A DNA stretch of 63,954 bases, the filler included, from Aduncisulcus paluster (lineage: Eukaryota): NCBI GenBank assembly GCA_024181965.1. It is 5 parts of 5 records of this genome, joined end to end, with 100 filler letters (N's around TTAATTAATTAA, not from the genome) between each part and the next. Parts side by side here need not be neighbours in the genome. Positions count along the whole stretch, not along the records: positions 1 to 31,222 come from BQXS01011281.1; 4 more parts are not named here. One strand, written 5' to 3'. Positions 12,219 through 33,867 of the stretch are shown piece by piece. How positions within the stretch are numbered: position 1 is the stretch's first letter; each line of letters opens with the position of its first letter. Both the position numbers and the translations under genes were made by a program. The notes beneath the pieces are model-generated. The model made no database searches. It was not told the origin of the DNA and was given only the letters and a program-made list of their open reading frames with translations.

Positions 12219-15200
12219 ATGTCCAATTTTTTTTCTTTTTTGCTTTTGGGTTTTTCTATGGAAGACCAAACTCATTATTGTGTAGATGTTTACACAATAT
12301 ATAGAAATATAGAATCAAACACACAAACGGATGCAGTTATCTTCTCGTTTAAATCCCAATTCGATAAATTAACCCATATGAGTTTTGAAGATGCCTGTGT
12401 GTTTATTCAAGCGACAGAAATGGCTATAAAAAGGAGGTTACCTCTCATTGCTATCTTTAATACCTCAAATTTTCTTATAGAAGATCGAATTCAATCCTTC
12501 TTCGTTCTCCCGACTCTTATCTCTTCATTTATTCGGGCTTCTTCGATGATTCCAACAGCTATATTTGCGTCTGGTGATATTCATGGAGTTGTTGCTCTTA
12601 TGATGAAAATAGCCACCGTATCTTGCCATGTATCTCATAATAGGTTCGATGAGATGTATTTGGCTGCTTTGAAAAGTCAATCCTTATTTATTCCTGATAG
12701 CCAGTCAAATTATTTTTCTCTGATTAGCCCCATTGACTATTGTAACCCCCTATATTCAGCCGATCTTGTACAACAAACCTTTGGTAAGAATTCAAGGAAC
12801 TTAGGGAAAAGCAAGGCTGAAATCTCATCTAAATTGGGATCTCATGTCATCTCTAAGCCGGATACAGTGAAGCCACCAGAGTTACACTTCTCTAATGCAT
12901 CTCTGCCGGACTTCTTCATTCAAGCATATTTCAAGGAGTTAAATTTGATGACAACACACCATGCAGTTGCAACAGGGATTATTACAAAGAGTTGTTTGTC
13001 CTTCATTGATGCTCTCAATACTATGTGTTACAAACTCCCCTATATTCCTGGAAATGTGTTTAAAAGCTCCCAGATTCTTCACTCTTTTCTTGCTAGTACC
13101 TTTAAAGACGCAGCACTTCGGAAATTGATTCGACTCCCGAGTTATTCGCGAATCCACTCATATTTTTCATCATCTCCTCGTGGTCTTTCGAATCACCACA
13201 GTGAAGGAAGGTCCCATGGCCATTCTCATCCATCGTCTGCCCCTTCAACCCATGTGAACCGACAACTATCGTTCTCAACATCAAAATCGGCGTCAAGCAC
13301 TTCCTCAAGCCGTTCTACTTCAACTGCCCCTCAGGTCCCTGCCCAAGCCCCATCATCTGACTCTGTCCATGGGGATGCAGGGCATTCGGGACATTCTTTC
13401 CAGCAGATGATTTCTCGCCTTGACAAATTTATTGATAATTACATATACCCGAAAGATCGTGAGACACCCACACTTCCTCTCAATTTCTCCCATATCCTGT
13501 CCTTTTATGGCCATATTCATAATGCTCCCGTTACATACATGCTTCACAGTGAAATCATTCTTGTATTCTTCTCTTTGCGCAAAAGGGCTCCATACCCTCC
13601 TCAACTGATTCAAATCCCGCGAGTTCAGACTCATCATCATCATATGCCTCCTCCGCATCCTACATCAAGACTCGCTACCACCTCTGAGCCCTCAAGCCAC
13701 CATGGATCCAGTGCTGTCCATGGAAGTGGTGCAGAGGAGTATATTCCCCAATCTTCACAGCAAGCTAGAGGCAAGAAGAAGATGCCCACGTATGCTGAGT
13801 TGTTCCATGCTAATGGGTTTGCTGTTCCAAGGGCTGACGAAGAAGAATGGGAAGAGTTCCCACCTTCTCTCCTGGCCTCTTCCATTGAGCGTGTGTGCAA
13901 GGATATTAAGAAGTACAGTAATTTGCCAATGATGATTTTCTACGATGGTGACTCCTTCTCCCATCCTCAGTATGGACTCTCTCCAGAGCATGAGTCGGGC
14001 TCTGAGCTAGTTTCTGCCGTTGCCACACTCTCCAGGACTCTTTTGAACCATCCAGCCACAGTGGGGACCCTCTTTTTTGGTTTATGCACAGGTATACTAA
14101 GTTCAATGCTCTGTATCGGAGGTAACATGGCCATTGTTGGAAATGTGAAAGGTCTTGAACGTTCTGGGAAAGAGAAAGACGAAGAATCGGAAGAAGCTGC
14201 TCCTTCAATGGATCACATGCCATCCACAGGGGTGGGAAGATCCATCTCCATTGTAGGTCACAGTGGTGTTGTCCCTCACTCTGATGCCTTTTCAGCCTCA
14301 ACATTAACTAGCAGCACTAAAGGCATTGAGTATACGCCCAGGGCTGGAGGTAGTGATATGGGCTTATCGTCCCAGAATCTTTCTGTCATGGGATCTCATA
14401 CTCTCCCCACTTCTAAGGGCTATTTCGATTATTTGAGTGATCGAATCTCTTCATCGTCTCTCATTGGATCCAACATTGCTCAGATCTTGAATTATCGAGA
14501 TGTATATCCCTTGGGAATGAACGGATACACAATAGCTGGGAAAGGTATTGTTGCGACCGCTAAAGGTGCTTATTCAATCGTTGAGTATCTGAACGTTGAG
14601 TGTAGAGAACGAAACAAGGTGAAACATCATACTGAAGCCCTATTAAAACGTCACCTGTACGATTCCGAGTCTCGTATCTCCACCCCAGATATAACTACCA
14701 GAAGATCTGATGTTATTCCGGGTTCTCTTCCATCTGATGTGGTATCAAGTGCGTCACCCGTACACTCTTCAATGTCAGTCCGTCATCCCCTGACATCCAG
14801 CTCGGCTTCTCCAGCTCCATCATCTTCCCATGCCGATGGTTCCACGCCCAGTCATCACAAGATGTATGATCCCAGCCTCTTCCATCTTTTACATCAGCAT
14901 ACAGAGGTCGTGAGCAGACTTGGTATCTTGAAAACTCTGATTAGATGTCGAGAAGTCATCCAAACTCAAGAGAAGAGAAACACTGAATTGCAGGCTCATC
15001 TTGCAAAGATCGTGGGTGTTGATTCTCAAAATCATCATCAAGGGAAAGGAAAGGCAAAGAAATCTTCGAGTTCTGAAGGTCAAACTATTGGCAAAAGAAG
15101 AACCTCTAAAGCTCACCAACAAGATGAATCTGTAAAGCCTTCTAAATCCGCTCTGATAACGACAAGCCAAGATCCCATTGCTAAGCCTTGTGCACTTTAT

Positions 15201-18200
15201 TCCCAAATATATCCGTCAACTGTCGATGGGTGGGGAATTCCTCTCTTGGGTCTCTTATCACGTGCTACTTTCTTTCGTCTGAAACACACGAACACTCACT
15301 TCGGAAGTGCAACGAAATCATCTGATTCTACAAGTGCTTCAGTGAAAGAGCAGAATTTGTTCATCCGAAAAGAGGGATATTCATTCCCTGTGAAATCAAG
15401 CTCCTCATTAACCCCAGTTCTCAACACTGTCACATCTCCTTCAATATCAACTACAATTCCCCTTGAAATTTCTGATTCAAAGGCGACATTGAAACATTTA
15501 CAAGGATATCTCGAGACAGGGCTCCATCATCTGTCTATTCATGCCCATCCACTATTCTCTCCTTCTACTTTCCCTCAGCAAGTATTGCCCACCCTGATGG
15601 CCCCTGTGCATACGGCATCGCTTCAAATGTTGAGAAAGATCCAGCGTAAACCCAATCTCCATTTAACGTATATTTCTGATGGTGTGTCTGGCCTTATGGA
15701 AGCCATTCGAAAGCAATCCGCCCCTGCATTTTACGATACCACCTTGTCCCTTGGGCAGGAAAGTGTCCTCAATGGTTCTCTCAGAACGGCAGACATTTAT
15801 GAACTCACCGATCAGCTTCTTCTTGTTCAGAATAATAACTTTGCTTGTGAACTTTTCTCCTGTGATGGGTATACAAAGTGTCTCTCTGTTGCCAAAGATG
15901 ATCCTTTTAAGCGTGTTGTTGCCTTCAAGAAGTGTGTTCCCCATGTTCTTGTGGCAGCTGCCGTTAAGACAAGGGGAACTTACTCCTCTCGTCCGGATCT
16001 CCTCTGTCCTCCCTGCTCCTCCCTCTCCATGACCTTGATCCGTCTCTTGTTACAGAGCGGAGTGGAGGTCGTTCGTATCTGCGACCCTCTGAACGATGTG
16101 GAAGCCATGTCTCCATTTATTAGAGTTGTCAACGATGCTGGGAGGATTTCTATGGGATGCATTACGATCAGCACAGATCCTGTTCTTAACAGAGGATGGG
16201 AGAGGGAGAAGTATGCTCAAGAATTCAGAACAGAGGAAGTGGATGAAGACGAAGTGAAAGATTCTTCTGTGTTGAAGAAAAAATCCAAGAAAGGCAGAGA
16301 ATCGACATCCACAGCTGCTGCCACTGATGGTAGAGCCCCCCAGTATGATGTATCTACCTCCAAGACTCATCCTCTTCCTTCTTCATCTTCCACTCAGAAA
16401 TTATCATCGAGTGTATCCTCCATTTCTTCAAGCTCTTCGTCCGGTCATTCGGAGTCTCGTCCTAGTCGCAACAAAGATGAAGAAGAAGATGTAACCGAGA
16501 TGACGAACACATCTGCTTCGGTCGATCACAGTAACTCTCACAATAACCGTGGAGACTCCACATCTCATATCACAGCTGAAGATCACGATGATGATGACAA
16601 ACATGGGTCACACAATGAGTTTACAGCCTCCAAGGATGAAGACGAAGAGGAGGATCTCAGCATGGATGACACTACAGTTGATGAAACATCCAGAAAGAAC
16701 ACTCCCCATTCTTCTCTTCGTGATGGTTCAACACACCCGTCTTCCAACATGTCCTCCTCCCAGGGATCATCAGAGGAAGAGGAAGAGGAAAGCAGTCTTC
16801 ACGCAATCCCTGTTGCCTCACCTACACTGACTGATCAACATCCTGTGTCAACCTCTGCTTTCCCAAAGACTCCTGCATCAAACACCACACCTCAGACGAC
16901 AGCACCACCAACGTACACCTCATCTATTCTGAATGGTCCTGCCCTTCCAGAGACACCAACAACTAAGAGGAAGGAATCATCAGCAACAGCATCCTCAACA
17001 AAGCCATCGACAAGAGGTAGAAGACGTAAGCATAGCCATCACGACCATAAGTCATCCAGCTCTGATAAACGGGGAAAATCCAGTACAAAATCCTCCATAT
17101 GTCCACCAAGGTCTACTTTCCTCCGCATTGGACAATTATGCCAACGGATGGCTGCCCTTGGATGCCATTGTATCTGCATAGATGATAGATGCGGCCGTAT
17201 TTCGCCTCAAGCTGCCGCCCCTCTCATGCGTATCATTCGAATGGCTGTTCCCAACGTTCCCATCTTCTTCCTTGGTTGTGACACTTCAGGTACAACAGCC
17301 GCAACAGGTGTGGCGATGATAGGTGGATCATGTGACGGTGTTGGTGTTTCTTTAGCCCCATTCACTGGTCCCGGTCTCCCTCCTGCTCCTCAACCCATCC
17401 TCTCTTCCCTCACCAACACTCCTTTCCTCTCCTCTGCTCCCGAGATGGGCATCTTCACGCATATGCAACAGGCTTTGGTACGTCTTTGTGTAACCAAGAG
17501 AATAGAGAACATGAAACGGGTATCACAGGTTGTGGAGAGTGCAGACAAAGGACAATGGGACAGAGAAGCTGTTCGTGCTCGTCTGCGACTTGGTAGACGC
17601 CGTGAGGCTGAGTGGAGAAAGAAGATCCATATCCAAGAGTTGAAGCGTATCATGAATAACCGCAGTCGTGAGCTTCTTATCATGCACAAACGTGGAGGAA
17701 AGACTCTTACAAGACTTCAAGGTTTCCAGAAGACTCAAGTCATTGCTCAGGAAGGGCATAAACTCCCAAGTTTGATTTGTTTGACATCTTCATTTTCACT
17801 GGCCTCAACCCCACAGAATCTGAGTGAGAGCCACGTAAGTCCTGCTCTGTGTAATACCATATGCGCAGCCGTTGACAAACTTATTGATTCATTTGAACCG
17901 ACTTTCTCACCTCCGTTGTCTATTTCTGGGACACGTATGGGCGAGCATTGTGCTGTCTCGAATCTTCTTGAACTCCTGGGGAAACCATCATGTGATTTGT
18001 CCACTATTCCTTTCGTTTCCTCTCAAGCAGTCCCTGTCCTCCCAATTGAACTTGTCCGTATCGCCAGAGAATGTGGATGCTCTGTTTTAGAACTCTGGAG
18101 ATTGTCACATGTTCTATTCCAGAGTGGATTGTCCTCAAGCTCAGGGTTTATGTTGTCCCCTCTGTTCCACGATGTCGTGTCAAACATTTCGAGGATAATC

Positions 18201-19751
18201 TCCAACTTGTCATCAGAAAACCACCCACATGTGACCGATAGTTTCATCTCCCGTGCAGTCATCAACACTTTGATCCGTTCTGCATGCTGGAAACAAGGAT
18301 CTTGTGAAATGTGGGAGCTCGTGGCGCGTGCCAAGACAATCCCGCCCTCTCGGATAGCCCATGCATACTCTCACTTGCTGAAAGAGTCCTGGATGTGTGG
18401 ATTTACTGCTGTAATGCGAGGTCATGTGATGAAATGCGAGAAAGAAAGGTATGTTGATGGACAGATTGATGACGGACAAGGTGCTGACTTCGATGTAATT
18501 TCAACCCCCACCCTTGGACCTATTCCTTTCGATCTTTCTGCTTCCGCTGGTAAGGCTACTCCACTTGGTCGTCCTCACGCTCTCTCCCTCCGGGATGACC
18601 CATCGATCTTCCGTGCTCTGATCACCCCGAGCATTGATGATGTTATCCAAGCCTACATTCACAGGGCTGAGATGTGTGGAAATGCCGAGGTATGTAAACC
18701 TGACCCTTCTTCAGTTCCACTCTCTACCTCTGGACTCTCTGATAAGATATCCGAATCATATGTGTTGTTGTCACGCCTATTCCCATTCGCATTCAACTCC
18801 TTCTATTCTTTCAAGGAACGGTATGGTACATTTGCTGACTCTTTGTCTCCTCGTATGTGGCTTCTTGGACTCTCTGTTGGTGAGACCATGCAAGTCAGCT
18901 GTGGTAGCTCACATGTGTTCCCGAATCCTTTCTCTTCTGAAGTTTTCAACTCCTGGGTACAAACTCGTGGTGACAAAGACCCCGAAGAGTTTGTTGTGGA
19001 TGACGATGACGACGTGTATCGTGAGACAAAGACCAAGAAACACTCAGCCCATCATGGAGTACACTCCCGTCGTTCAGCCTCAAGGAGAAGTGTGCCTCGG
19101 CGAGCCTCATCCTCGCTTCTCTCTTCCACACAGCCCAATCCTTCGACTGTTACTCCAGCCTCCATTACACTCGTGAGTGTTGTGCCCGATGGAAAGGGTG
19201 GAATCATATGTAACTATAACATCAGTACAATCCCTTGGGCTATCGTGGCCGTTCACGTTGAGAATAACACCCATATCCAGAACGACTCGGATAAGTTTGG
19301 ACGAATCATGCAAACCTGCATGCTCAATGGTACTGGTCAACATTCTCATGGAATGTTCAACAAACCACTGTTTGTGAAGGTAAATGATCACGTGTCCACG
19401 GCTCTTCTTTCAGGTATCCATTCTTCTGCTGAACCAGCTGATATTCAACATGGAGTGTCTTATGCTTGCAGGAAATTGCCTGAATTGGAGTCTTTCTCAT
19501 GCCACATTCCCATATTTAGCAACTGTACGGGAAATGTCTGTCGGGTCAATGTGAGTGTTGGTGACGTGGTAAGCGTTGGAACAGTGATAATGTCCATTGA
19601 AGACAGTAGACGTTCCATTGAACCTCTTGTTGCCACTCATACAGGTGTTGTCACATCCGTTTTGAAGAAAATGGGCGAAAGTATCGGAAAGGGTGAAATT
19701 GTCTGTGGCATTGTAGAAATCTTTGATGACATGACATTTTGTCAAGAGTAA
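12219..19751 (+). CDS. Divergent transcarboxylase-like fusion: two acyl-CoA carboxyltransferase subdomains + pyruvate carboxyltransferase TIM barrel + biotin-carrier-like domain; catalytic motifs degenerate
   Basis: N-terminal blocks align by eye with PCCB/12S (LPLIAIFNTS..IED, RASSMIPTAI, LPMMIFYD). Middle aligns with pyruvate carboxylase CT (DTTLSLGQES..LRTADI, DDPFKRVVAFKKCVPHV, GVEVVRICDPLNDV, GCHCICIDDRCGRISP, CDTSGTTAAT, FKERYG). C-terminal SNCTGNVCRVNVSVGDVV...ATHTGVVTSV matches the biotinyl/lipoyl fold. No biotin carboxylase domain. Start may be Met at 12258. Confidence 0.8.
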   Translation: MSNFFSFLLLGFSMEDQTHYCVDVYTIYRNIESNTQTDAVIFSFKSQFDKLTHMSFEDACVFIQATEMAIKRRLPLIAIFNTSNFLIEDRIQSFFVLPTLISSFIRASSMIPTAIFASGDIHGVVALMMKIATVSCHVSHNRFDEMYLAALKSQSLFIPDSQSNYFSLISPIDYCNPLYSADLVQQTFGKNSRNLGKSKAEISSKLGSHVISKPDTVKPPELHFSNASLPDFFIQAYFKELNLMTTHHAVATGIITKSCLSFIDALNTMCYKLPYIPGNVFKSSQILHSFLASTFKDAALRKLIRLPSYSRIHSYFSSSPRGLSNHHSEGRSHGHSHPSSAPSTHVNRQLSFSTSKSASSTSSSRSTSTAPQVPAQAPSSDSVHGDAGHSGHSFQQMISRLDKFIDNYIYPKDRETPTLPLNFSHILSFYGHIHNAPVTYMLHSEIILVFFSLRKRAPYPPQLIQIPRVQTHHHHMPPPHPTSRLATTSEPSSHHGSSAVHGSGAEEYIPQSSQQARGKKKMPTYAELFHANGFAVPRADEEEWEEFPPSLLASSIERVCKDIKKYSNLPMMIFYDGDSFSHPQYGLSPEHESGSELVSAVATLSRTLLNHPATVGTLFFGLCTGILSSMLCIGGNMAIVGNVKGLERSGKEKDEESEEAAPSMDHMPSTGVGRSISIVGHSGVVPHSDAFSASTLTSSTKGIEYTPRAGGSDMGLSSQNLSVMGSHTLPTSKGYFDYLSDRISSSSLIGSNIAQILNYRDVYPLGMNGYTIAGKGIVATAKGAYSIVEYLNVECRERNKVKHHTEALLKRHLYDSESRISTPDITTRRSDVIPGSLPSDVVSSASPVHSSMSVRHPLTSSSASPAPSSSHADGSTPSHHKMYDPSLFHLLHQHTEVVSRLGILKTLIRCREVIQTQEKRNTELQAHLAKIVGVDSQNHHQGKGKAKKSSSSEGQTIGKRRTSKAHQQDESVKPSKSALITTSQDPIAKPCALYSQIYPSTVDGWGIPLLGLLSRATFFRLKHTNTHFGSATKSSDSTSASVKEQNLFIRKEGYSFPVKSSSSLTPVLNTVTSPSISTTIPLEISDSKATLKHLQGYLETGLHHLSIHAHPLFSPSTFPQQVLPTLMAPVHTASLQMLRKIQRKPNLHLTYISDGVSGLMEAIRKQSAPAFYDTTLSLGQESVLNGSLRTADIYELTDQLLLVQNNNFACELFSCDGYTKCLSVAKDDPFKRVVAFKKCVPHVLVAAAVKTRGTYSSRPDLLCPPCSSLSMTLIRLLLQSGVEVVRICDPLNDVEAMSPFIRVVNDAGRISMGCITISTDPVLNRGWEREKYAQEFRTEEVDEDEVKDSSVLKKKSKKGRESTSTAAATDGRAPQYDVSTSKTHPLPSSSSTQKLSSSVSSISSSSSSGHSESRPSRNKDEEEDVTEMTNTSASVDHSNSHNNRGDSTSHITAEDHDDDDKHGSHNEFTASKDEDEEEDLSMDDTTVDETSRKNTPHSSLRDGSTHPSSNMSSSQGSSEEEEEESSLHAIPVASPTLTDQHPVSTSAFPKTPASNTTPQTTAPPTYTSSILNGPALPETPTTKRKESSATASSTKPSTRGRRRKHSHHDHKSSSSDKRGKSSTKSSICPPRSTFLRIGQLCQRMAALGCHCICIDDRCGRISPQAAAPLMRIIRMAVPNVPIFFLGCDTSGTTAATGVAMIGGSCDGVGVSLAPFTGPGLPPAPQPILSSLTNTPFLSSAPEMGIFTHMQQALVRLCVTKRIENMKRVSQVVESADKGQWDREAVRARLRLGRRREAEWRKKIHIQELKRIMNNRSRELLIMHKRGGKTLTRLQGFQKTQVIAQEGHKLPSLICLTSSFSLASTPQNLSESHVSPALCNTICAAVDKLIDSFEPTFSPPLSISGTRMGEHCAVSNLLELLGKPSCDLSTIPFVSSQAVPVLPIELVRIARECGCSVLELWRLSHVLFQSGLSSSSGFMLSPLFHDVVSNISRIISNLSSENHPHVTDSFISRAVINTLIRSACWKQGSCEMWELVARAKTIPPSRIAHAYSHLLKESWMCGFTAVMRGHVMKCEKERYVDGQIDDGQGADFDVISTPTLGPIPFDLSASAGKATPLGRPHALSLRDDPSIFRALITPSIDDVIQAYIHRAEMCGNAEVCKPDPSSVPLSTSGLSDKISESYVLLSRLFPFAFNSFYSFKERYGTFADSLSPRMWLLGLSVGETMQVSCGSSHVFPNPFSSEVFNSWVQTRGDKDPEEFVVDDDDDVYRETKTKKHSAHHGVHSRRSASRRSVPRRASSSLLSSTQPNPSTVTPASITLVSVVPDGKGGIICNYNISTIPWAIVAVHVENNTHIQNDSDKFGRIMQTCMLNGTGQHSHGMFNKPLFVKVNDHVSTALLSGIHSSAEPADIQHGVSYACRKLPELESFSCHIPIFSNCTGNVCRVNVSVGDVVSVGTVIMSIEDSRRSIEPLVATHTGVVTSVLKKMGESIGKGEIVCGIVEIFDDMTFCQE

Positions 19752-22928: not shown

Positions 22929-25047
22929 TTATTTAGAATATTTTTTCCCTGATTTTTTAGTTTTTTTCTTCCCAATTTTTGCAGCTTCTTCTTTATCTCT
23001 CCTGAAGTCAACATCTTCAAAGAGGGAAGCAAATCTCTTATCTTGAAGCAATCCTTGCCCCAATTCTTCCTCCTCGCTGTCTTCAAGCTGGTCTTGGATC
23101 TGTTTCATCTCTTCTTTTCTCTTCTTTTCCTCAAGCAACACGCGGTCAGCAAGACTCTCCGAAAGTTCTTTTTCTTTCCTCTTCTTTTTCCGTTCCTTTT
23201 CATCTTTTTTCCATTGTTTTCTATCCTTTTCAAGCTTGGCATCACGAACAAGCCGTTCATCAATATAATATCCATTCAAATAAGGCAATAAAAGCGATGT
23301 ACCGATAAGATGGGACAATCCAAGAGAAATCATATCAGCAGGGGTCAAGAAAGTGTAATCGCTGTACAAAGCATTCACTCCTACCTTCCCAAGCTTCTCG
23401 ATAGCGCCAAGGTGAGACGACGAAGCCAGAGTTTCCTCCANNNNNNNNNNNNNNNNNNNNAAGTTCTTTTTCTTTCCTCTTCTTTTTCCGTTCCTTTTCA
23501 TCTTTTTTCCATTGTTTTCTATCCTTTTCAAGCTTGGCATCACGAACAAGCCGTTCATCAATATAATATCCATTCAAATAAGGCAATAAAAGCGATGTAC
23601 CGATAAGATGGGACAATCCAAGAGAAATCATATCAGCAGGGGTCAAGAAAGTGTAATCGCTGTACAAAGCATTCACTCCTACCTTCCCAAGCTTCTCGAT
23701 AGCGCCAAGGTGAGACGACGAAGCCAGAGTTTCCTCCATCTCCATTCCAGATTGTTGGACAGCAGTTCCCATTCCAGATCCAAGCCCTTCTCTCTCTTTC
23801 TTCACGAGCTCCAGCGATGCAGCCCACGACGGCGCTGGGGCAATTGTTGAGGAGAGCACCGTTTGAATCTGCTTTGTTTGGCGAGCAACGAAAAACATTC
23901 CAGAGCCAGGATATACGCATACATCATTGATGTGAGCCATGTGCTGAGTCTGTTTTTTGAGAGCTCCCTGCATGCGAGGCTCATATACGAATAGAGGTCT
24001 TTTCTCACCATATCTCTCACATTCAGAGACACACCAGGTCTTAAAACTGAATCTATCAGAGGAAAATAAGAGAGCGCCGGGAGTTGAACCCAAGGATGTT
24101 GATATAGAAGAAAATGAAGGGTCACTTGTACCAATAGCAGACGAAGAACTTGGGATTGATGATTTCCCGCGTACATCCTCCATACCATCAAAGTCTTCCT
24201 CACCGAGTTCTTTAAGATGTCCTGCCGCCAGCTCTTTATCTTGCTCTTCGAGCTCGGCCTGAATAACGGGTTGTTGACTCCAAGACAAAGAAATTATTTC
24301 AGAATCGTACCCTTGGTCCAAAGTAAACAATGGCTTGGAGGAACGGAGATCAAAACATGAAACACATCCACCTTTTGTTCCAACAGCAAGTTTTAATCCA
24401 CTTGGATGCATTGAAACAACCGAAGGTATCGTTGAAAGGTGATTGTCAGAAGATAGATATGATGCTGGTAAAGTAGCTGAAACATCGAGTAAACCAACCC
24501 TTTTTTGTACTCTTGGATCAAAACATTCAACATATCCGCATTCAGTTCCGATGGCAACGAGACCATGCACATCAGACCAAGAAACACATGTTCCAGCGGC
24601 AAAAGGTGAAGTAAGTCTTTGGACACGATGCAAAGGTTGTGATAATTCGTAAGATCGAAGGAAAGAACCCTTCGTTAATGATAATCTATACAACTCTGGA
24701 CTAGAAGCCGCAATAAGCAATTCAGCATGGGCTTCATCAAATTCTAATTGTCTAGGAACCTCAGGGATTCGCGTTTTATAATGAAATCCTCCTTTAGTAT
24801 GAAATTCAATGTTCCTATCAGCTTCTGCAAAGACTATTTTGTCAGCATTCTCTGAAAGGATATAAAAGTCTACAATATCACTATCGGTAGTTCTTGAAAC
24901 TTTTAATGAAAGATTATTCACATCAAATATTTTATATTGTGGAGGGTAACGTCCTATCGTAACAATATGTCTACCATCAGGAGAAACCTTCACTTTCTGA
25001 CATTCCCCTGGGAACTGAAAATTCTGAATCAATGAATTCGATATCAT
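22929..25047 (-). CDS. NOL10: Nucleolar protein 10 (NOL10/Enp2), WD40 + NUC153; split by gap 23441-23460 with duplicated overlap
   Basis: LIQNFQFP..CQKVKVSPDG, GRYPPQYKIFDVNNLSLK, IEFHTKGGFHYKTRIP, APAPSWAASLE, YSDYTFLT, LIGTSLLLPYLNGYYID and NUC153-like DKRFASLFEDVDF. 23163-23440 is repeated at 23461-23738. Confidence 0.93.
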
Positions 25048-31851: not shown

Positions 31852-33549
31852 TTAGACAAATAGTTTGCTATAATCGAGAGGAACACTCATAGTTACCCCG
31901 CCTCGTTCAATTGATCCCTCGATAGCCCCATCATCGTCTTCCAAAGACCTTTCTTCCTTTTTATATTCGTCTCTGACTGTCCTCACTCTTTCGATTGCTC
32001 TCTTCATATCATCCAATGCCAAATGTTTAGCATAGTGATGCCAATACAGTTTCTTGCCGAACAACCGATCAATTTTCTCAAGGGCTATATCTAGTGTATT
32101 TGTAATGGCAGTCGAATTTGATAGAGAGAGGAAAGAGTAGGGCAACTCGACACACTCACCTTGATGCCACCTTACAGCTCCTTGGGAACACACACCAACC
32201 TTAAATCCATCAACAGCCCAAATAGGCATCTTCATTCGACCCCTTTGTTTCTCAATACACCAACTCATATCCTCAACACACACACGGGCCCCTCTCCCGA
32301 ACACACCACAGGACAAAGTGCACGCAGATTGGAAATACGACAATCGAGTTCTTCCTAATGACCCTCCTGTCTTACTCCCTGGTTTCACAGCTGGCCCAGA
32401 AGATGAAGCTGCATCGCTGCACATGCAACAATCTCGCGAAAAGACAGAAAGACACGCTTCCCGTAAAGACAGAGGAAGTGTCCTTGGAGATAGTGGAGAT
32501 AACGAAGGAATAAGGAGATTTAACGAAGAGAATGGGACCATATTAGTATTCAATTCACTTATATCAACATTCAATTCACCTCCATATCTCATTCCGGCAG
32601 TAATGTCACACAAAACACTGGCAATCGTTCCATTAATAAAACCATAGGGCGTTTCCTCGGGTTCATCGGACGTTGCTATTGTCTTGGATGCTGCAGAACT
32701 GGTCGGCGATACATCCTTGAATAACGAGGGAGAAAATGTTTTCAGAGATTGTGGGATATCTTTGCTTTTCAAGATAGGACTGTAAGCCTCTCCAAATGCA
32801 TATTTCAATGGGGAAGATTTAGTAGTGATTGTCCGATCTCTTGCTCTTCTCGGAATCTTTTTAATTCGATGTGCAATTCGTTCGATCTGTTCATTTTCAA
32901 AGGGCAGGATAACATCAGCTGTCTCCATCAAGTGAGAAAGAGAAAGTATACAATTATAAGGGGAGGTAATGACATCATCCGAATGAACATTTGGAACAAC
33001 GGACGCAGAGACTCGAGTGAGTTCAGGGAAGAGATCTTTCACACATTCCAAAACTCTCACGCCAAGTCCACTTCCGGTACCCCCACCCAAAGAATGCAGA
33101 AGAAACACACTCTGAGGACTATCACACAGATCTAATTGCTTCCGAAGATGATCCTCGATTGACCTTGCATGCTTCTCTCCATATTCAACATATCCACAGG
33201 CCCAATTATTTCCAGAACCGCTACCAGTGACATCATCAAGACGGTAATCAGCCGTAAATAAATCTTGTAAGGGCCCTTGTAACAAACGATTTAGAACTCC
33301 CTCTTCCATATCAATGAGAACTGCCCTAGCTTTGAGTTTTCGAACTTTATCACCTCCACTCGAACCATAGTATCCATCTTTTATCTTTAGATGAGCCCCC
33401 TCAATCACGTCAGATGTATTATGAAAAAAAGTAGATAGAGATTCTCCTTGTGGATGAAAGGCCTGCTCAATAAGGCATTGACGCCAAAAATCACAGCCAA
33501 GTTGGTTTCCACATTGCCCTACTTGAACGATAATACATTCATGAGGCAT
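31852..33549 (-). CDS. TUBE1: Epsilon-tubulin
   Basis: MPHECIIVQVGQCGNQLG, LKARAVLIDMEEGV, GSGNNWA, HSLGGGTGSGLG and DDVITSPYN are epsilon-tubulin blocks; true start is probably the ATG at 33549. Confidence 0.93.
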   Translation of the reverse strand: MPHECIIVQVGQCGNQLGCDFWRQCLIEQAFHPQGESLSTFFHNTSDVIEGAHLKIKDGYYGSSGGDKVRKLKARAVLIDMEEGVLNRLLQGPLQDLFTADYRLDDVTGSGSGNNWACGYVEYGEKHARSIEDHLRKQLDLCDSPQSVFLLHSLGGGTGSGLGVRVLECVKDLFPELTRVSASVVPNVHSDDVITSPYNCILSLSHLMETADVILPFENEQIERIAHRIKKIPRRARDRTITTKSSPLKYAFGEAYSPILKSKDIPQSLKTFSPSLFKDVSPTSSAASKTIATSDEPEETPYGFINGTIASVLCDITAGMRYGGELNVDISELNTNMVPFSSLNLLIPSLSPLSPRTLPLSLREACLSVFSRDCCMCSDAASSSGPAVKPGSKTGGSLGRTRLSYFQSACTLSCGVFGRGARVCVEDMSWCIEKQRGRMKMPIWAVDGFKVGVCSQGAVRWHQGECVELPYSFLSLSNSTAITNTLDIALEKIDRLFGKKLYWHHYAKHLALDDMKRAIERVRTVRDEYKKEERSLEDDDGAIEGSIERGGVTMSVPLDYSKLFV

Positions 33550-33867
33550 AAAATACGGCTGGAATGTGATCAAAATGATCCGAATTTGGCCCAGAAAGAT
33601 ATTCCCAACATGATAATATATTATTCCGTTCAACATATTAAAGAGTAAATAAATAAACCATATGAATTTTCCAAGCACAATATTATTGTGAGTACCCAAT
33701 GATATTACATTTTGGAGTCTACCACATGAAATTCAACATTTTGAAAAAATATACGGGATCTATTGCCCATTATAGCTAAGTATTAATTCATTCTGGACTA
33801 ATTTACACTGTAATAAATGATATTTTGTCAAGATTACTATCCAATCGTCTTTTGGACGACGAGACTG

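Follow-up and report, generated by a model that had tools for sequence, protein, structure and literature searches.

A 2510-residue candidate pseudoenzyme of probable transcarboxylase-fusion descent in Aduncisulcus paluster

The window considered here, that is, the whole stretch of 63,954 nucleotides from the eukaryote Aduncisulcus paluster that was analysed (assembly GCA_024181965.1, five parts of five records joined with filler), carries on its plus strand one uninterrupted open reading frame (ORF) of 7.5 kb, whose product we refer to as P0001. This ORF is a real coding gene, and its product is very probably a dead homologue of a biotin-dependent carboxyl-transfer enzyme whose frame has been kept open by selection. 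Its layout, from the start codon to the stop codon, is as follows.

12219..19751, plus strand: single uninterrupted ORF (P0001), 7,533 nt, 2510 aa, ATG start, TAA stop
12333..12569, plus strand: probable remnant of the N-half of an acyl-CoA carboxyltransferase (aa 39-117); weak, from PDB, profile, hhalign and Atlas
12570..15674, plus strand: about 1035 aa without a family, made up of globular-looking segments and S/T/H/P/E/K-rich low-complexity runs in alternation
15675..16190, plus strand: pyruvate carboxyltransferase TIM barrel, part 1 (aa 1153-1324), from PDB, own profile and NCBIfam; RDxHQS replaced by SLGQES, LRG by VKT
16191..17132, plus strand: S/T/E/D/H/K-rich insert of about 315 aa (aa 1324-1638) in the loop after the fifth barrel strand, from profile, MAFFT, model and coding signal
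17133..17423, plus strand: TIM barrel, part 2 (aa 1639-1735), from PDB, own profile, MAFFT and a weak Pfam HMGL-like match; KDMAG replaced by DDRCG, HxHxH by FFLGC
17424..19517, plus strand: about 700 aa between barrel and biotinyl domain, weak PYC_OADA trace only
19518..19706, plus strand: biotinyl/lipoyl-type domain (aa 2434-2496), from Pfam and PDB; E-A-M-K-M replaced by E-D-S-R-R, no Lys in the hairpin

Stop codons are absent from the frame of the ORF (frame 1), compared with 95-167 in each of the other five frames and with a mean of 124 and a minimum of 98 in 200 shuffled controls. With 11 nearby genes supported by Pfam as its training set, a codon log-odds model gave positive frame-1 values in all nine regions of the ORF, low-complexity inserts included (0.15-0.35 per codon, against 0.22-0.52 for the 11 reference genes), with negative values for frames 2 and 3 in every region. 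Neither tandem repeats (Tandem Repeats Finder) nor internal duplications were found within the ORF. The uninterrupted frame claimed in a preliminary description of this DNA, made from the sequence alone, thus stands, with a coding signal along its entire length.

Two public sequencing runs of one sample were consulted, of which X1 is DNA and X2 is taken to be RNA by guess only. X1 yielded long contigs spanning genes and spacers, whereas in X2 one contig of 7417 nt spans positions 12282-19695 with zero joints or splices; elsewhere, an X2 contig joins across a 113-nt GT..AG intron of a neighbouring minus-strand gene, a joint that was not seen in X1. Stretches lacking X2 cover were not counted as evidence. 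These observations make an unspliced full-length transcript likely, although they do not prove it. Within the ORF, the runs depart from the window at one place only, 16478, where X1 and X2 both have an extra in-frame GAA.

Sequence comparison revealed clear homology of the last 1,360 residues to the pyruvate carboxyltransferase TIM barrel and the biotinyl domain of pyruvate carboxylase (PC) and oxaloacetate decarboxylase. In a phmmer search of the PDB, pyruvate carboxylases were the top match (E 6.7e-15), aligned collinearly over aa 1153-1318 and 1640-1731 and again over the biotinyl domain, followed by the oxaloacetate decarboxylase alpha subunit (E 4.6e-7) and the transcarboxylase 5S subunit (E 4e-3); the biotinyl domain itself reached E 3.7e-6 against the PDB. 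NCBIfam likewise ranked pyruvate carboxylase models first (E 4.2e-28), matched from model position ~516 onward only, with the 5S model at E 6.9e-9, and the scores for NF009554 and TIGR01235 (97.7 and 93 bits) lie below their cut-offs of 965 and 1114. Among the Pfam families that had been proposed as a check, only Biotin_lipoyl passed its cut-off (aa 2438-2496; E 1.4e-6 for the segment alone, 4.9e-5 for the full-length protein); HMGL-like left a weak, below-cut-off trace in the barrel, PYC_OADA likewise remained below its cut-off, and Carboxyl_trans gave no match.

For a finer comparison we used 30 bacterial genes of the PC/OadA type, taken from 81 sampled genomes of which 51 had a PYC_OADA match. 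The C-terminal half of P0001 matched all 30 (E 7e-21 to 3e-8) among 48 candidate frames, the remaining 18 being off-frame ORFs. Identity to these homologues amounts to 17-25% in the MAFFT alignment, and a profile built from them matched the whole protein with E 3.8e-30 at Z=1 in three collinear pieces:

profile positions 29-177: aa 1168-1323
profile positions 184-279: aa 1639-1735
profile positions 517-632: aa 2371-2495

Consensus residues are matched in 84 of the 339 aligned profile columns. An alignment-driven AlphaFold2 model of aa 1153-1760 returned pyruvate carboxylase matches in Foldseek; as the alignment itself supplies the fold, this result is not independent evidence that the fold has been kept, and the model was used solely to place the insert.

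Within this alignment, the positions that carry the chemistry of the family are replaced. All eight catalytic or acceptor columns that are invariant in the 30 homologues differ in P0001, so that the loss of the pyruvate carboxyltransferase site and of the biotin acceptor, as originally proposed, is borne out. Motif by motif, the replacements read as follows.

RDxHQS: R, D, H and Q each in 30/30 homologues; here S, L, Q and E
LRG: R in 30/30; here K
KDMAG: K in 30/30 and M in 30/30; here D and R
HxHxH: last H in 30/30, here C; middle H in 23/30 (Q in 7), here L
EAMKM: A, M, K and M each in 30/30; here D, S, R and R

The coordinates given earlier for the replaced motifs are all correct. The exact positions are SLGQES at 15747-15764, IDDRCG at 17178-17195, FFLGCD at 17265-17282 and EDSRR at 19599-19613, together with TSNFLIEDR at 12462-12488 and GDIHGV at 12573-12590 in the N-terminal part. 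The position of the biotinyl Lys is occupied by Arg in the PDB alignments also, the hairpin contains zero Lys, and the WGGATFD block is lost. In contrast to the eight catalytic columns, none of which survives, 18 of 55 invariant columns are retained, mostly Gly, Pro, Asp and Arg residues off the sites. We take the replaced columns to be the metal ligands (Asp, carbamylated Lys, His-x-His), the pyruvate-binding Arg/Gln/Arg and the biotin acceptor. The alignments thus support the view that the metal and substrate site of the pyruvate carboxyltransferase and the biotin acceptor would be devoid of their chemistry.

The several-hundred-residue insert previously noticed within the TIM barrel was located at aa 1324-1638 (~315 aa), between profile positions 177 and 184, and forms a clean block in the MAFFT alignment too. 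In the alignment-driven AlphaFold2 model it is predicted to be disordered, with a predicted local distance difference test score (pLDDT) below 50, between the fifth strand and the next helix. Downstream of the barrel, the trace of PYC_OADA is confined to aa 2176-2229 (nt 18744-18905; Pfam E 0.022, 14.9 bits against a cut-off of 27), and a comparison of aa 1736-2370 with the PC/OadA profile was not significant (hhalign probability 0.18). Upstream of the barrel, the stretch 12570..15674, where the proposed C-half of the acyl-CoA carboxyltransferase would have to be sought, gave no match in the PDB, Pfam, Atlas, our own profiles, hhalign or 1.84 billion representatives.

The N-terminal part of the protein gave a fainter signal. 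Only three PDB entries matched aa 1-330 at E<=10, and all of them are propionyl-CoA carboxylase (PCC) beta chains with E~1, whose residues 84-163, the oxyanion motif included, align with aa 39-117. A profile of 27 bacterial carboxyltransferases (CTs) of the PccB/MccB type, drawn from 32 loci after five with an unrelated midpoint frame had been dropped, matched aa 57-113 with E 7e-4 (Z=1), a score that none of 2000 shuffles reached, and hhalign returned the same register (E 0.011). Language-model features of the Atlas placed aa 1-330 with Carboxyl_trans clusters (best 0.89, 178 shared features), which serves as a lead only; the ten best family-bearing matches were all Carboxyl_trans, and Atlas on aa 520-810 gave no usable match. 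A single-sequence AlphaFold2 model of aa 1-330 was unusable (mean pLDDT 33.8). Taken together, these data point weakly to homology with the N-half of an acyl-CoA CT over aa ~39-117, with a core of ~55-80 residues.

In this weakly supported alignment, the oxyanion motif D-S-G-G-A reads N-T-S-N-F, and its D, G, G and A, invariant in all 27 sequences, correspond to N, S, N and F; A69, P75, I77 and P112 are kept. The proposed replacement of the Gly-rich motif SGGARIQEG by TSNFLIEDR is therefore in line with the register obtained here, whereas the companion proposal, GDIHGV in place of GPCAGG, falls outside every tool alignment. Of the domain order that had been described, CT N-half, CT C-half, barrel and carrier, the last two are significant, the first is weak and the second went undetected. 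That all four folds persist is an overstatement: sequence upholds it for the TIM barrel and the biotinyl domain and reduces it to the short, weak core for the CT N-half, while the CT C-half gave no signal. The absence of a biotin carboxylase that had been stated agrees with our searches, as no biotin carboxylase or ATP-grasp family was reported in Pfam and NCBIfam scans of the whole protein and of eight segments.

A CT remnant followed by a pyruvate-CT barrel and a carrier, with no biotin carboxylase family reported, is an order that fits a single-chain transcarboxylase. We therefore regard as the probable ancestor a protist-type single-chain transcarboxylase, composed of an acyl-CoA CT, a pyruvate CT and a biotin carrier and lacking a biotin carboxylase. 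Alternatively, the protein might be a dead descendant of pyruvate carboxylase, or of a PycB/OadA-type chain of CT and BCCP, to which an unrelated N-terminal region of 1150 residues was added. Such an origin would account for the closer affinity of the barrel to pyruvate carboxylase models than to 5S (NCBIfam 4e-28 versus 7e-9, PDB 7e-15 versus 4e-3), as well as for the weak N-terminal CT signal and the undetected CT C-half. It accounts poorly for the N-terminus, where PCC beta chains, aligned in register with the oxyanion motif, are the only PDB matches to aa 1-330, where independent methods share that register and where the ten best family-bearing Atlas matches all name Carboxyl_trans; nor does it sit well with the lack of any ATP-grasp or biotin carboxylase family in any scan. 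We thus consider this origin unlikely, and descent from a transcarboxylase fusion is the reading carried forward here.

Pseudoenzymes are common. With neither canonical biotinylation nor a metal or substrate site, we infer that any function of the protein must be non-catalytic; metal binding at the active site, biotinylation and carboxyl transfer would all be impossible. In the likeliest role, the surviving barrel and carrier folds would instead offer interaction surfaces, and the long disordered inserts would act as docking or regulatory platforms, so that the protein would serve as a scaffold or, much as the plant BADC proteins do, regulate another biotin enzyme. This role is put forward tentatively, by analogy. 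For the statement as a whole, an expressed and frame-intact pseudoenzyme of transcarboxylase-fusion descent acting as a scaffold or regulator, we lean slightly towards acceptance. A more specific version, in which a dead chain that cannot be biotinylated would co-assemble with an active biotin enzyme and tune or poison its activity, as a BADC analogue of the size of a whole enzyme, is rather unlikely; its partner would be a transcarboxylase, pyruvate carboxylase or acyl-CoA carboxylase of the same cell, and the disordered inserts of several hundred residues would be regulated control or docking arms, for example through phosphorylation. If a regulatory or scaffolding role is true, the BADC principle would no longer be confined to one carrier domain but would cover an entire multi-domain enzyme, and the protein would provide a handle on the control of malonyl-CoA or oxaloacetate supply in a little-studied eukaryote.

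Somewhat less likely still is a functionless relic, that is, a gene without a role that now drifts and owes its open frame and its transcription to nothing more than chance or the recency of the loss. The disappearance of all catalytic columns, the lack of a detectable family over more than half of the length and the lack of an orthologue that could show constraint would all be expected of such a relic. However, an identity of 17-25% implies a long history, over which an unselected frame would hardly have remained free of stops in 2510 codons, where ~124 are expected. In addition, every region, inserts included, has kept a gene-like codon signature, the runs differ from the assembly by a single observed variant, a 3-nt indel that preserves the frame, and the 18 of 55 invariant columns that remain are mostly structural. 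Were the relic explanation nevertheless correct, the locus would still show cleanly how an enzyme can decay at its sites while retaining its fold and, through disordered inserts, double in size. Finally, an enzyme with altered chemistry, using a new metal site (Cys1687, Asp1655/1656) or another carrier modification, is highly improbable. The Asp and Cys that have replaced Lys and His close to the former metal site might in principle act as metal ligands, and fold-defining motifs are retained. Against this, P0001 has lost the Arg/Gln/Arg columns for the substrate, the acceptor Lys and the WGGATFD block, the hairpin has no Lys at all, and ~315 residues modelled as disordered (in the alignment-driven model) would occupy the loop after the barrel strand.

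Several points weigh against the pseudoenzyme of transcarboxylase descent that we favour. No result bears directly on a partner or on a scaffold or regulator role. That X2 is RNA is only the guess of a tool, and its contig shows neither level, ends nor strand. Purifying selection is argued from the open frame and codon statistics only, no orthologue having been found. At the observed 33% survival of invariant columns, all eight catalytic columns would be lost by chance with a probability of ~0.04, and at about 4% the loss of the sites is thus only modestly more specific than the overall divergence; moreover, the catalytic roles assigned to the replaced residues are carried over from structural work on PC and the 5S subunit. 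No fold could be assigned to aa 118-1152 and 1736-2433, over half of the protein. As for the N-terminal CT, a larger profile of 107 sequences, mostly PccB orthologues at least 61% identical, gave only E 0.07, albeit in an unchanged register, and the domain was undetected in Pfam, in NCBIfam and, with aa 1-1200 as query, among 1.84 billion representatives (0 matches at E<=0.001, in a library that lacks the proteome of this organism). The CT C-half was undetected in PDB, Pfam, Atlas, two profiles and hhalign, where extreme divergence could hide the fold.

Word-indexed protein searches with the whole protein and with aa 1140-1330 retrieved no orthologue; these are weak negatives, as such searches depend on shared words and low-complexity words may have swamped the one with the whole protein. 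Metagenome scans with aa 1141-1330 and aa 1626-1760 gave no relatives either. Among the titles and abstracts covered by our literature search, no description of a dead transcarboxylase or of a dead pyruvate-carboxyltransferase chain was found.

The gene lies in eukaryotic DNA that is densely packed with genes: the two strands of the window together carry 30 ORFs of 200 aa or more. Scans of 27 of these, P0001 not counted, identified, among others, PARG, Utp21, a proteasome alpha subunit, an RRM protein, NOL10, a protein kinase, a divergent tubulin, Mtr4, MAD1 and a DRG GTPase; none of these 27 is a biotin-related gene, and no Rfam RNA family was found over the window. Two housekeeping proteins are over-long, the Utp21-like protein with 1434 aa (4512-8816, minus strand) and the PARG-like protein with 764 aa, which suggests that large inserts are a habit of this genome and not peculiar to the transcarboxylase-like gene.

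Upstream of the ORF, the 113-nt intron that is joined in an X2 contig lies at 9945-10057 on the minus strand (GTATGT...TTAG), from which it follows that the ORF at 8813-9913, without a family in Pfam, forms the 3' exon of a longer gene that extends to 10157 or beyond. Further along, a perfect direct repeat of at least 205 nt (10429-10633 and 10796-11000, spacing 367 nt) lies upstream of the proteasome alpha-3-like ORF, and the contig of the DNA run omits one of the copies (joint from 10428 to 10796), so that the window and the run contigs differ here. The proteasome alpha-3-like ORF itself (11084-11932, plus strand) lines up with its solved relatives only from about their residue 39 onward, so that an exon further upstream has probably been missed and may lie within or close to the duplicated stretch.

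On the other side, a second perfect direct repeat of 278 nt (23163-23440 and 23461-23738, spacing 298 nt) lies in the minus-strand NOL10-like gene. It shifts the frame, so that the gene is split into two ORFs, 23335-25047 and 22929-23573, which overlap and both match NOL10_2nd; the repeat reflects either tandem duplication in the recent past or an error of the assembly. At 31852-33699 on the minus strand, a 615-aa protein of the tubulin family has beta-tubulins as its best solved relatives (only E 3e-46, over the GTPase domain) and is probably a divergent tubulin with inserts that is neither alpha, beta nor gamma.

Among known systems, the closest in architecture are the single-chain (methyl)malonyl-CoA:pyruvate transcarboxylases of protists. 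Fused transcarboxylases are reported from Giardia and retortamonads (PMC7985675), and those of Entamoeba and Mastigamoeba are reported to supply malonyl-CoA (PMC8136499); in the parts of the literature considered (PMC7985675, PMC8136499, PMC3199775), both the transcarboxylase domain order and the Giardia fusion, which had been invoked as precedents, agree with what was stated. By their published descriptions, these proteins share with P0001 the eukaryotic single chain, the proposed domain order and the lack of a biotin carboxylase. They are described there as active, whereas P0001 retains none of the catalytic or acceptor residues tested, and its CT C-half, unlike theirs, is not recognisable. 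The Giardia transcarboxylase is ~1,340 aa long, and P0001 has roughly twice that length.

The transcarboxylase of Propionibacterium (12S, 5S and 1.3S) has the three functional modules in common with P0001, and its 5S models match the barrel; unlike P0001, it consists of separate subunits and is active and biotinylated, and pyruvate carboxylase models give the barrel of P0001 far better scores than 5S does. Pyruvate carboxylase (CT and BCCP), OadA and PycB provide the best matches for aa 1153-1735 and 2371-2496 in a common, collinear order. In contrast to pyruvate carboxylase, P0001 has no biotin carboxylase domain, its invariant catalytic columns are replaced, its barrel is split by ~315 aa and PYC_OADA is barely traceable. 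The nearest functional parallel would be the plant BADC proteins, BCCP homologues lacking the Lys that are reported to inhibit heteromeric acetyl-CoA carboxylase (ACCase) by displacing active subunits (bioRxiv 10.1101/634550). As described there, they have a biotin-carrier fold without the acceptor Lys and are non-catalytic, which is also what the carrier of P0001 appears to be; however, BADC is a small single-domain protein with a demonstrated partner, and P0001 would be a whole multi-domain dead enzyme. The likeness to BADC thus concerns a possible mode of action and not ancestry.

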